IMG/VR virus record: IMGVR_UViG_2548877011_000016
Source: a virus
Lineage: Duplodnaviria > Heunggongvirae > Uroviricota > Caudoviricetes
Reading direction: 5' to 3' (one strand)
DNA length: 9,181 nucleotides
The notes under the pieces are model-generated. The model made no database searches. It had not been told where the DNA came from and saw only the letters and a list, made by a program, of their open reading frames with translations. The position numbers and the translations under genes are program-made. This document shows, in pieces, positions 6,532 through 6,857 of the stretch; the first letter of the stretch is position 1, and each line of letters starts with the position of its first letter.

Positions 6532-6665
6532 AACGGCTCCTAGTTTACGTTGTTGGTTAGAAGCCCTGCGAGTGGTAATGACACTTGCGGGGCTTTGCTT
6601 TTTTAAGTGCTCTTGTGTTAAGGTGACCACCTAACAATGGAAAGGCTAATTCAATAGGTGACCAC
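6532..6665. promoter_or_regulatory. Divergent control region with two AGGTGACCAC boxes (candidate operators)
   Basis: Identical 10-mers AGGTGACCAC at 6621-6630 and 6656-6665, 35 bp apart, each containing the palindromic core GGTGACC. They lie between the leftward early operon (start 6531) and the rightward RHH gene (start 6666). A minus-strand TTGACA (plus 6666-6671) abuts the second box. Confidence 0.5.
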
Positions 6666-6857
6666 TTGTCAACAATCAAACGCGATAAAAGCCCTAAAGG
6701 GGACGGGCAATCCCCACAATTCAGAATGCGAATTTCTCCAGAGCTAAAAGAGCAATTCGACAAAGAAGCACAGAGCGACGGCATAAGCCTAGCCAACTGG
6801 CTTAAAGAGTTGGGGCGCACTGAACTAAAGCGGCGCGGCATAGAACCCAAAGGATAA
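6666..6857 (+). CDS. Ribbon-helix-helix (CopG/Arc-like) DNA-binding protein, candidate island repressor or antitoxin (63 aa from TTG)
   Basis: TTG start at 6666 is preceded by AGGTG with a 5-nt spacer; an in-frame stop lies at 6660-6662. The only ATG (6726) would cut the predicted N-terminal strand. Sequence ...QFRMRISPELKEQFDKEAQSDGISLANWLKELGRTELKRRG fits the RHH strand-helix-helix pattern. It is the only convincing plus-strand gene in the island. Confidence 0.55.
   Translation: MSTIKRDKSPKGDGQSPQFRMRISPELKEQFDKEAQSDGISLANWLKELGRTELKRRGIEPKG

Follow-up and report, generated by a model that had tools for sequence, protein, structure and literature searches.

An Arc-like protein and two predicted operators form an exchangeable cassette at the early promoter of a phage satellite

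A small plus-strand gene divergent from the early operon

We analysed a divergent control region within 9181 nt of viral DNA (the window) that belongs to an E. coli phage satellite. The early operon, whose genes encode an icd-like protein, DUF4222 and a RepA helicase, lies on the minus strand, and its predicted promoter (P_early) overlaps the start of a plus-strand gene for a small ribbon-helix-helix (RHH) protein. Int (9181..7940) and an alpA/vis-like gene (7443..7237), both on the minus strand, converge on the RHH unit from the other side. The unit and its borders comprise the following elements:

6560..6606, plus strand: intrinsic terminator hairpin of 15 pairs followed by GCTTTTTT, directly upstream of the predicted RHH promoter, at the left boundary of the cassette
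6666..6857, plus strand: RHH gene, candidate repressor, 63 aa from a TTG start, with beta-strand PQFRMRIS and helices at residues ~25-37 and 42-56
6900..7088, plus strand: orf62, for a small basic protein, following the RHH gene, its conserved part starting from MTDKE (ATG 6915)
7178..7218, plus strand: terminator-like hairpin with a 14-pair stem and a T-rich tail, closing the RHH-orf62 unit before the convergent alpA-like gene
7237..7443, minus strand: alpA/vis-like helix-turn-helix gene, convergent with the RHH unit and named from PGAP annotation of near-identical loci

Translation of the RHH gene begins at 6666 and not at the ATG further in (6727): the position of 6666 is occupied by ATG or GTG in relatives, two of which lack the internal ATG. 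By profile, P22 Arc is the best PDB match of the protein (48 residues, E=0.008), with Q9, N11 and R13 of Arc aligned to residues 18, 20 and 22. An AF2 model built from a 50-sequence alignment (mean pLDDT 81.7) is extended to residue 24 and continues with helices 25-37 and 42-56. Foldseek placed Arc at all of ranks 1-7 (best rmsd 1.0 A over 42 residues), and nearly all of the best 50 PDB matches listed are RHH proteins (Arc, AmrZ, CopG, NikA, ParG, antitoxins). Foldseek E-values are weak (at least 0.06) because the RHH domain is tiny; the probability is 1.00 for the Arc chains. Model and search together give the N-terminal strand and two helices of the ribbon-helix-helix (Arc/MetJ) fold, which confirms the initial annotation of the gene product as an RHH protein. 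The interhelix turn, D-G39-I-S41-L, has the G-x-S/T/N pattern, G39 being invariant within A1 and S41 reaching at least 90% conservation in A2. Strand F19-x-x-R22-I shows polar/hydrophobic alternation, F19 and R22 being invariant, and residues 18, 20 and 21 are variable positions within an otherwise conserved N-terminal half. Proteins of the RHH superfamily are obligate dimers that read DNA through paired beta-strands; for the protein described here, support is indirect and comes from the co-variation of strand residues 18/20 with the operator cores (below). The Pfam Arc family gave no match at E<0.01; the protein is Arc-like by fold and not a curated Arc-family member. Its relatives fall into 344 protein clusters, and copies of the gene are known from hundreds of E. 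coli genomes, among them that of O157:H7 Sakai (Sp7).

A 221-aa ORF (7222..6557, minus strand) runs antisense to this gene. It begins 15 nt after the alpA stop. Some RefSeq genomes (PGAP) list it as a hypothetical protein, and in Sakai it bears the name ECs_1576; long antisense frames are likewise open in three related loci (L014, L019 and L021). One could suppose that this ORF is the real gene and the RHH frame its antisense shadow, a reading to which we give almost no credence. The median dN/dS of the 221-aa frame is ~2.2 (window versus related locus L005, dN 0.153, dS 0.034), whereas the RHH frame is under purifying selection, with low dN and high or saturated dS (same comparison, dN 0.026, dS 0.515). 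Moreover, the 221-aa ORF has no Pfam or NCBIfam match, it would cross the terminator and P_early, and PGAP elsewhere treats it as a pseudogene or reports an internal stop and annotates the RHH gene instead. We rejected it as a coding gene on dN/dS, and its calling in place of the RHH gene in some genomes is an annotation error.

The RHH gene had also been described as the only plus-strand gene, which is not the case. Orf62 follows it and has tblastn homologues downstream of both types of RHH cassette described below (63% aa in L049, 44% aa in L006). It is absent from many other RHH loci, and here it is probably co-transcribed with the RHH gene. Most members of the RHH family carry the database name HicB antitoxin (PGAP: 'HicB family antitoxin'), and RHH antitoxins autoregulate via operators upstream of their own gene. 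These names, a weak HicB match (PF05534, 20.4 bits, E 5e-4) and the small basic ORF after the gene would fit an antitoxin, with orf62 or a neighbour as toxin and operators that only autoregulate the pair. We consider such an arrangement very unlikely. The HicB score is below the Pfam cut-off of 21 and the match covers the RHH part only; at 63 aa, the protein is too short to have a toxin-binding tail beyond that domain. No hicA-like gene was found in any annotated neighbourhood examined. The place downstream may be taken by orf62, by a SWIM zinc-finger protein or by one of 160 aa, or be empty, whereas the divergent promoter and operon are always present, and one of the two operator boxes described below (O2) sits within the spacer of another promoter. 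The toxin-antitoxin reading was set aside on these grounds, chiefly the lack of a conserved partner and the sub-threshold score.

Paired boxes, beta-strand residues and cassette exchange

The 10-mer AGGTGACCAC has exactly two copies in the window, at 6621-6630 and 6656-6665 (starts 35 nt apart), and no third copy was found there with one mismatch allowed. Each copy extends to a 12-mer in which AGGTG and CACCT are inverted repeats:

6621..6632, no strand: candidate operator box O1, AGGTGACCACCT, with a GGT-N4-ACC core between inverted arms AGGTG/CACCT
6656..6667, no strand: candidate operator box O2, AGGTGACCACTT, spanning the RHH Shine-Dalgarno AGGTG and running into the TTG start by two bases

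The AGGTG of O2 is 5 nt upstream of the start at 6666, and O2 abuts TGTCAA (6667-6672), which is TTGACA on the minus strand. The pair of identical 10-mers, and the position of one of them over the Shine-Dalgarno and against a minus-strand TTGACA, had been noted initially and are borne out here.

Judged on the window alone, such a repeat could be due to chance. Exact repeats of at least 10 nt within 60 nt turn up once or more in 36% of dinucleotide shuffles (n=1000), and the window itself has several other exact pairs of this kind, so it is the comparative data that give the boxes their significance. Part of each box also coincides with a -10-like element or with the Shine-Dalgarno. The boxes could accordingly be a chance repeat, plain promoter elements, or sites of another protein (AlpA or a factor from a helper phage), unconnected with the RHH protein. 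Comparison with related loci makes this highly improbable. We examined ~50 of them from about a dozen enterobacterial genera (Escherichia, Erwinia, Xenorhabdus, Yersinia, Pectobacterium, Brenneria, Trabulsiella, Klebsiella and others). At beta-strand positions 18/20, each residue pair has its counterpart in one box core, a one-to-one match that holds for both boxes at once and comprises seven classes; this number is small, some classes are represented by closely related loci, and part of the co-variation reflects shared descent, since cassette and gene are inherited together. Residue pairs and cores correspond as follows:

Q/R at 18/20: GGTG(AC/GC/GT)CACC
P/H at 18/20: GGTGTACACC
M or L/N at 18/20: GGTATAGACC
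I/S at 18/20: GGTCCATACC
T/Q at 18/20: GGTACGTACC
A/Q at 18/20: GGTAC(AC/GC)ACC

The I/S class, a single Erwinia case, correctly foretold the boxes of a Klebsiella protein. In the reverse direction, all 29 IMG/VR contigs with a Q/R operator pair have an RHH gene directly downstream (Q/R in 28, Q/K in 1), and a search for operator pairs in helper phages lacking the gene found none among these 29 matches. Box cores are conserved while the sequence between the boxes drifts: 12/12 boxes of the T/Q class share one 7-nt core, against an average of 53% identity for the spacer. The minus-strand -35 TTGACA is invariant in all aligned loci. Loci with a common box class also differ in their alpA-like genes, which speaks against this alternative as well. 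Operator and DNA-reading residues change together, as would be expected of a repressor-operator pair, both across the seven classes and in the 29 of 29 contigs. From this co-variation, the RHH protein almost certainly binds both 12-bp boxes. Cooperative binding at O1 and O2 is not obvious, because 35 bp is a non-integral number of helical turns.

The idea that co-resident satellites need different RHH classes was not borne out: several Pectobacterium and Brenneria genomes carry 2-3 copies of the T/Q class. Erwinia psidii carries two classes, I/S and T/Q. The Pectobacterium copies adjoin a tRNA and have no obvious early operon to control, a point against the repressor model proposed below.

The region is exchanged as a unit. 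Positions 6603-6850 of the window are replaced in other E. coli, as in the related locus L001, by a different RHH gene, between flanks that are 99% identical. The swapped unit includes both promoters, the boxes and the gene. The L001 cassette has three copies of a box of its own, TGTCAGCCAC, in the same layout, and boxes of this second RHH family also co-vary with their own beta-strand. The breakpoint at 6603 falls in the terminator hairpin upstream of the RHH gene. In 27/27 loci this hairpin folds at -21 to -30 kcal/mol as plus-strand RNA (2-8 G.U) versus -12 to -22 kcal/mol as minus-strand RNA (0-2 G.U), a strand preference taken from per-sequence folding. Stem sequences differ among the 27 loci, and RNAalifold on a MAFFT alignment of 6547-6610 recovers only 4 pairs, because indels mis-register the stems. 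We predict that 6603-6857 is a self-contained regulatory cassette, consisting of an Arc-like RHH protein and its two cognate operators O1 and O2.

Predicted promoter overlap, RNA immunity and a proposed early-operon repressor

Two promoters are predicted back to back in the cassette:

6643..6672, minus strand: predicted P_early, with TTGACA (6672..6667), an 18-nt spacer and TAGCCT (6648..6643), and a putative start at ~6636
6595..6624, plus strand: predicted RHH promoter, with TTGCTT (6595-6600), 18 nt and an extended -10 TGT-TAAGGT (6616-6624), and a putative start at ~6631

A consensus promoter scan of the window found neither of them; the -10 of P_early is weak (3/6) and the site fell below threshold. 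In two relatives, L006 (TTGACA-18-TATGTT, 10/12) and L012 (TTGACA-17-TATTAT, 11/12), the site homologous to P_early is the sole promoter-like match. For the RHH promoter, TGn-TAnnnT is kept at the same position in relatives (TGTTAAGGT, TGATAGGGT, TGATATTGT). O2 lies in the spacer of P_early, adjoining its -35, and O1 would overlap the -10/start of the RHH promoter and occupy about +4 to +16 of P_early. The operators would then overlap the core promoter, a geometry that the L006 and L012 sites support, although the promoter of the window itself failed the scan.

The neighbour conserved alongside the RHH gene is the leftward operon (icd-like, DUF4222, primase/helicase), and alpA and int flank the gene on the opposite side. 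In this island the early transcript also carries RNA elements, overlooked in the initial annotation, and the icd-like gene:

6326..6402, minus strand: isrK-like RNA, a relative of P4 seqA (Rfam RF01394, 66 bits versus gathering 50, E 1e-12)
6217..6304, minus strand: C4/CI-type antisense immunity RNA (Rfam RF01695, 73.8 bits versus gathering 45, E 2e-13)
6162..5971, minus strand: icd-like gene, with the C4 RNA upstream of it (NCBIfam NF033153, E 1e-16)

The two RNAs are 230-450 nt downstream of the boxes, and the isrK-like element has its own minus-strand terminator (6348..6330) inside the early transcript, an arrangement characteristic of P4/P1-type RNA immunity. IsrK/C4-type immunity was previously noted in Gram-negative phage-inducible chromosomal islands (PICIs) (PMC10111431). 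Rfam detected C4/isrK in none of 20 other loci that carry the RHH cassette. The two are hence independent modules stacked here, and the notion of one obligatory system was dropped. As to alpA, PGAP names the gene 'helix-turn-helix transcriptional regulator' or 'AlpA family transcriptional regulator', and it has no Pfam match at E<0.01. The further suggestion in the initial annotation, that this region is where the helper phage is sensed, is not supported by the present data. In related E. coli PICIs the helper-responsive step is expression of alpA, whose product is an activator; whether a repressor exists in Gram-negative phage-inducible islands was stated as unclear (PMC6092414).

The RHH protein is probably an autoregulated Arc/Mnt-type repressor of the early promoter, acting via O1 and O2; repression and autoregulation we infer from the geometry. 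The initial annotation had read the divergent region as a repressor/operator switch, and the core of that idea is sustained by the box/beta-strand co-variation, the overlap with the predicted promoters and the exchange of the cassette. RHH dimers would reach into the major groove of each GGT-N4-ACC box with a beta-ribbon of two strands (residues ~17-24, PQFRMRIS), residues 18 and 20 setting the accepted central bases. Because O2 lies in the P_early spacer and O1 just downstream of the -10, occupancy should block initiation of the early operon, which would silence the icd-like gene, DUF4222, the RepA helicase and the packaging genes. The protein should also limit its own synthesis, since O1 covers its own -10/start and O2 covers the Shine-Dalgarno at the DNA level. 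The two promoters probably compete for RNA polymerase, being back to back with starts a few nt apart. Repression might be relieved by a helper-encoded antirepressor, by AlpA, or by read-through from alpA. In this island, early transcripts that do start would meet the isrK/C4 RNAs as a second block.

Alternatively, the RHH protein might bind the boxes without being the off-switch of the island, as an activator, a promoter-choice factor or an insulator against read-through, control being exerted by AlpA and C4/isrK. Several observations would suit this: the weak -10 of the window would fit an activated promoter, there are terminators on both sides of the cassette, and the C4/isrK RNAs sit on the early transcript. 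Over-expression of the activator AlpA alone induces the related PICI EcCICFT073, so the published model does not require a repressor (PMC6092414). With C4/isrK immunity also present, the RHH protein may be a minor layer in this island. We nonetheless regard this alternative as unlikely. One operator in the -35/-10 spacer and another at +4 to +16 is a classical repressing geometry, with a precedent in Arc at Pant, and the same promoter is near-consensus in relatives (11/12) and would need repression. In the 20 loci where the cassette occurs without C4/isrK, no negative regulator other than the RHH protein can be recognised.

As a probable repressor, the RHH protein together with its operators on the early promoter, swapped as a cassette, is a testable candidate for the off-state of the satellites. 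Gram-negative satellites would gain a candidate repressor whose annotation has so far been limited to antitoxin or hypothetical protein; in later surveys such small genes go by the names of HicB antitoxin, YlcI/YnfO protein or hypothetical and no other (PMC13612085). Designs of orthogonal repressors could draw on the seven residue/box classes of this Arc-like fold. More speculatively, Arc-like and YlcI/YnfO-like cassettes could supply the primary repressors, or 'immunity' determinants, that are missing for a large group of Gram-negative PICIs and capsid-forming PICIs, with swappable specificities that define immunity groups and a helper that induces by defeating the RHH protein, via an antirepressor or AlpA. 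We hold this broader proposal to be possible but doubtful. If it is true, the natural allelic series amounts to a two-residue to four-base recognition code for the RHH beta-ribbon.

Comparison with known systems

HicB antitoxins have the RHH DNA-binding domain in common with the protein described here. The latter lacks the HicB N-terminal domain and a HicA partner, scores below the Pfam threshold and is followed by a variable downstream gene. P4 CI and P1-P7 C4 immunity acts on the same early transcript, in the same island as the RHH boxes; its agent is an RNA that takes effect once initiation has occurred, through termination or translation, unlike the RHH cassette.

The position of the gene had been likened to that of satellite master repressors. 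This likeness is partial: the RHH gene is divergent from the replication operon, but it is convergent with int/alpA and its product has no sensor domain. Stl/Rpr of SaPIs and Gram-positive PICIs are likewise divergent from the early (excision/replication) operon and exist in many allelic forms, and they point in the same direction as int (PMC6092414). They are larger HTH proteins inactivated by the binding of a helper-phage protein, whereas the RHH protein has 63 aa and no extra domain. Its known diversity is in DNA specificity and not in a sensor surface.

The YlcI/YnfO (DUF3950-type) small proteins of E. coli prophages and PICIs were found in 495/5426 E. coli genomes. Between identical flanks they fill exactly the slot of the RHH gene (L001), their sequence pattern is RHH-like, and repeated boxes of their own stand at the same positions relative to a minus-strand TTGACG. 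They belong to a different sequence family, and their boxes are three direct GTGT-N4/5-CAC repeats as against two palindromes.

By sequence and fold, the nearest solved relative is Arc of P22. In P22 immI, as its operator positions are generally described, Arc and Mnt act on the overlapping divergent promoters Pant and Pmnt. Both are small RHH proteins like the one encoded here, and PQFNLR of Arc aligns with its PQF-x-x-R beta-strand motif. Identity is at most 28%, and the RHH protein has a conserved 17-residue N-terminal arm (MSTIKRDKSPKGDGQSP) that distinguishes it from Arc; compared with Mnt, it is without the C-terminal tetramerisation domain. Its sites are two separate 12-bp palindromic boxes 35 bp apart, while Arc has one 21-bp and Mnt one 17-bp operator. 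The controlled gene in P22 is that of an antirepressor, in place of which the icd-like/replication operon of the satellite is the predicted target. Overall, the predicted layout is shared: an operator inside the -35/-10 spacer of a strong promoter, a repressor gene divergent like mnt, and likely self-regulation.

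Probable operator boxes and the residues that vary with them

The 10-mer AGGTGACCAC occurs in the window at 6621-6630 and 6656-6665 and nowhere else. Its 12-mer forms, with inverted AGGTG/CACCT arms, lie beside the RHH gene as follows.

6621-6632: O1, AGGTGACCACCT
6656-6667: O2, AGGTGACCACTT; its AGGTG sits 5 nt ahead of the TTG start
6666-6857, plus strand: 63-aa ORF (RHH protein)
6667-6672: TGTCAA (TTGACA on the minus strand), abutting O2

Window search and sequence reading confirmed the paired boxes, the Shine-Dalgarno overlap and the adjoining minus-strand TTGACA, as the initial annotation had them. 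On its own the repeat is unremarkable within the window, since exact repeats of at least 10 nt within 60 nt arise in 36% of 1000 dinucleotide shuffles and the real window holds several other such close pairs.

The alignment comprised the window and 11 E. coli loci, joined by 34 loci of other Enterobacterales found through a profile of the RHH protein and by six from exact-protein look-ups. Except in L044 (different N-terminus and upstream DNA) and L046 (a partial match), the RHH start codon is fused to an invariant minus-strand -35 ([A/T/G]TGTCAA) and preceded by two boxes ~35 nt apart. Both boxes vary jointly, in step with RHH positions 18 and 20 (motif P-x-F-x-[MVI]-R); the outer GGT...ACC of the boxes and R22 of the protein are constant across classes.

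Box cores by RHH residues 18/20
Q/R: GGTG(AC/GC/GT)CACC
P/H: GGTGTACACC (perfect palindrome)
M/N or L/N: GGTATAGACC; other box GGTCTATAC
I/S: GTATGGACC, with GGTCCATAC
T/Q: GTACGTACC, with GGTACGTAC
A/Q: GGTAC(AC/GC)ACC

Among T/Q loci 12/12 boxes, from six lineages, share one 7-nt core, versus a mean identity of 53% for the inter-box spacer. The I/S pairing, a single case (Erwinia psidii), correctly forecast the boxes of a Klebsiella protein looked up later. A reverse scan of IMG/VR with the Q/R operator pair alone returned 29 contigs, and an RHH gene directly follows the second box in every one (Q/R in 28, Q/K in one). Common descent of gene and boxes inflates the co-variation counts; even so, a cognate operator pair would be expected to give constant boxes against a drifting spacer, joint change of two separate sites and a prediction that holds. 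As a natural specificity series, the protein and its boxes are unusually clean.

The RHH protein and its reading frame

P22 Arc is the best PDB match of an eight-member profile (E=0.008, 48 residues), and the alignment places residues 18/20/22 on Arc Q9/N11/R13, the known base-contacting residues of the Arc-operator structure (PDB 1par). In the AlphaFold2 model (50-sequence alignment, mean pLDDT 81.7) helices span residues 25-37 and 42-56, preceded by an extended segment. In a Foldseek search of the PDB its seven best matches are all Arc (probability 0.96-1.00; best rmsd 1.0 Å over 42 residues), with other RHH proteins ranking next. Positions 18, 20 and 21 are variable in the alignment and the rest of the N-terminal half is conserved. 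A HicB match below threshold was all that Pfam returned, and NCBIfam gave a weak match to TraJ; no domain besides the DNA-binding fold was found. The family forms 344 clusters in a large protein database, under the names 'HicB family antitoxin', 'YlcI/YnfO family' and 'hypothetical'.

In some RefSeq genomes and in Sakai, a minus-strand ORF of 221-248 aa is called here instead of the RHH gene.

6557-7222, minus strand: 221-aa ORF, 'hypothetical protein' in some RefSeq genomes, ECs_1576 in O157:H7 Sakai
6900-7088, plus strand: orf62, basic 57-62-aa protein (MTDKELTKTLSPARKRRRRK...ERFAPCAF.LE.FLKEY)

Among cassette variants dN is low and dS high or saturated in the RHH frame (0.026 and 0.515 for the window versus L005), and the long-ORF frame shows the reverse (0.153 and 0.034 for the same pair; median dN/dS ~2.2). 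The long ORF has no family match in Pfam or NCBIfam, and elsewhere PGAP treats it as pseudogenic or notes an internal stop in it. On these grounds we reject it as an antisense artefact, whose annotation displaces the genuine RHH gene and orf62 in those genomes. An internal RHH start at ATG 6727 was ruled out as well: the codon is missing in two E. coli loci (L011, L012) and the N-terminal arm is conserved in all loci. The RHH gene had been described as the only plus-strand gene; orf62 is a second. Its homologues lie downstream of both RHH cassette types (L049, L006), and it has no family match.

Promoters, RNAs and predicted repression of the early region

Features of the early control region
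6672..6643, minus strand: predicted leftward promoter (TTGACA 6672..6667, 18 nt, TAGCCT 6648..6643; start ~6636)
6616-6624, plus strand: extended -10 (TGT-TAAGGT) of the predicted rightward promoter, TTGCTT 18 nt upstream; RHH mRNA start ~6631
6560-6606, plus strand: terminator (hairpin and T-run)
6490-6518, plus strand: possible antisense promoter, with a kept TAnnnT
6402..6326, minus strand: isrK-like element (66 bits) with terminator, on the early transcript
6304..6217, minus strand: C4/CI-type RNA (73.8 bits), after the isrK-like element and ahead of the icd-like gene

The leftward -10 of the window is weak and falls below the promoter-scan threshold; in L006 (10/12) and L012 (11/12) the homologous site alone looks promoter-like. 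The rightward extended -10 is conserved. O2 occupies the leftward spacer beside the -35, and O1 spans ~+4 to +16 of the same promoter and overlaps the rightward -10/start. Because the boxes overlap both predicted promoters, their occupancy should shut off the early operon and restrain production of the RHH protein. The two promoters lie back to back and overlap, an arrangement that recalls P22 Pant/Pmnt. The repressor/operator part of the initial annotation is well supported by comparative evidence, and an Arc-type repressor that acts on the early promoter and on its own gene is the probable reading; the master, helper-sensing switch is less likely than not. Expression of alpA in EcCICFT073 responds to the helper, and the island is induced when AlpA is over-expressed (PMC6092414). 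The RHH protein may act as the primary off-switch, as one brake among several, or chiefly as an immunity/insulation device.

Minus-strand terminator-like hairpins with T-runs, differing in sequence, are present in L006 (1597-1624) and L012 (1404-1422). They fall within codons 5-17 of the RHH gene, a short way upstream of the early promoter -35, and might stop alpA read-through into the early operon; the window counterpart (~6693-6716) is only a weak 5-bp hairpin.

RNA immunity of the P4/P1 type has been noted previously in Gram-negative PICIs (PMC10111431). No C4/isrK RNAs were found in 20 other loci bearing the RHH cassette, which argues that cassette and RNA immunity are independent modules, stacked here. 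Both RNAs (6217-6402, minus strand) lie inside the frame of ORF 6531..5971, which Pfam/PGAP call 'Ash family protein' and RefSeq lists as a pseudogene. Residues 40-133 of its translation make up the Ash match, which spans the RNA genes, and the protein annotation may represent translated RNA genes. Two copies of the icd-like N-terminus are present (6531... and 6162...), as though an icd-like gene had taken up the RNA module.

The hairpin of this terminator (6560-6596, followed by the T-run) is 4-13 kcal/mol more stable as plus-strand than as minus-strand RNA in 27/27 loci and has 2-8 G.U pairs in that sense versus 0-2 in the other, with stem sequences that vary by locus; we therefore assign it to the plus strand. 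A terminator of this kind points to plus-strand transcription that would run antisense to the first early (icd-like) gene across its 5' UTR, ribosome-binding site and ATG (SD 6541..6537, ATG 6531). About 45 nt upstream of the hairpin all loci keep TAnnnT (TATGAT 6513-6518, or TGgTATATG 6508-6516). A candidate cis-antisense RNA of ~80 nt, P22 sar-like or type I TA-like, can be drawn from these elements and has no Rfam match; it is only a lead, since TAnnnT overlaps conserved icd-like codons.

Cassette exchange and island setting

In the near-identical island of strain SMN013SH2 (L001), identity to the window is 99% as far as 6602 and resumes at that level from 6851; in between, 295 unrelated nt replace 248 nt of the window. 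This insert codes for another small protein, whose sequence has an RHH-type pattern. Ahead of its gene stand three copies of a separate box, arranged as in the window with respect to a minus-strand TTGACG.

Alternative cassette at this position (YlcI/YnfO family by PGAP, RHH-like pattern) and its three boxes
L001, 6705-6999: TGTCAGCCAC
L047: TGTCGGACAC
L048: GTGTGGCCCAC
L049: GTGTATTTCAC

These GTGT-N4/5-CAC boxes vary with the beta-strand (KLEARVP, RIDARVP, ALKARVP, MTTVRIP). In L012, a third E. coli locus, the left hairpin is the same as in the window and ~40 nt just past the RHH stop are ~90% identical, and the Arc-like gene belongs to another specificity class. The exchanged unit is exactly both promoters, boxes and gene, bordered by the terminator at left and the stop codon at right. 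Among 5426 complete E. coli genomes the common left flank is found in 826, the YlcI-like cassette in 495 and the Arc-like cassette in 207, including O157:H7 Sakai 'prophage Sp7'.

The M/N-class cassettes of L011 (E. coli AW1.7) and L018 (Erwinia tracheiphila) have a Mu-like prophage rather than a satellite context, with Mor activator and Gp27 annotated nearby, so the module moves between phages and satellites. In L026 (Pectobacterium betavasculorum, 2223-3192) and ~15 similar Pectobacterium/Brenneria loci, the RHH cassette lies ~700 nt from a tRNA gene and its 'early' promoter faces the tRNA/att end, nothing but a truncated icd-like start separating the two; the loci are either remnants or cases in which the promoter reads over the junction once circularised.

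The window itself is an integrated E. coli phage satellite, flanked by tRNA-Pro/yejM on one side and yejO on the other. Its minus-strand genes, as annotated in near-identical RefSeq loci, run from right to left:

integrase, small ORF, alpA-like HTH gene
'ash family'/icd-like region, DUF4222, RepA-type helicase
small terminase subunit, major capsid protein

This order matches Gram-negative PICI and capsid-forming PICI elements (PMC6092414, PMC10111431). The box/RHH region falls in the 'dynamic zone' with alpA on one side and replication genes on the other, and the RHH gene is convergent with alpA and int. Just downstream of the RepA helicase stop (3608), the close direct repeats CTCCCCACTTTT / CCCCACTTTT (3416-3440 and 3586-3595) probably represent iterons of the satellite's origin. 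Further short repeats, tandem or close, lie at 677-700, 2313-2347 and 2566-2588; CGTATAACTAAA is present twice near the yejO-side island end, and GTGTAACTTTT-type repeats within the small-terminase ORF code for KKVTKKVTEKVT.

In a 2026 survey of PICIs, HicB and YlcI/YnfO are listed with the accessory or toxin-antitoxin genes (PMC13612085). We found no paper treating these RHH/YlcI-like genes as regulators in a literature whose coverage was incomplete, and an earlier description is possible. The candidate would fill a place where the field lacks a repressor. The exchange of a whole promoter-box-gene unit resembles that of the immunity modules of temperate phages, and RHH repressors with operators are a well-known class, of which this is a further member.
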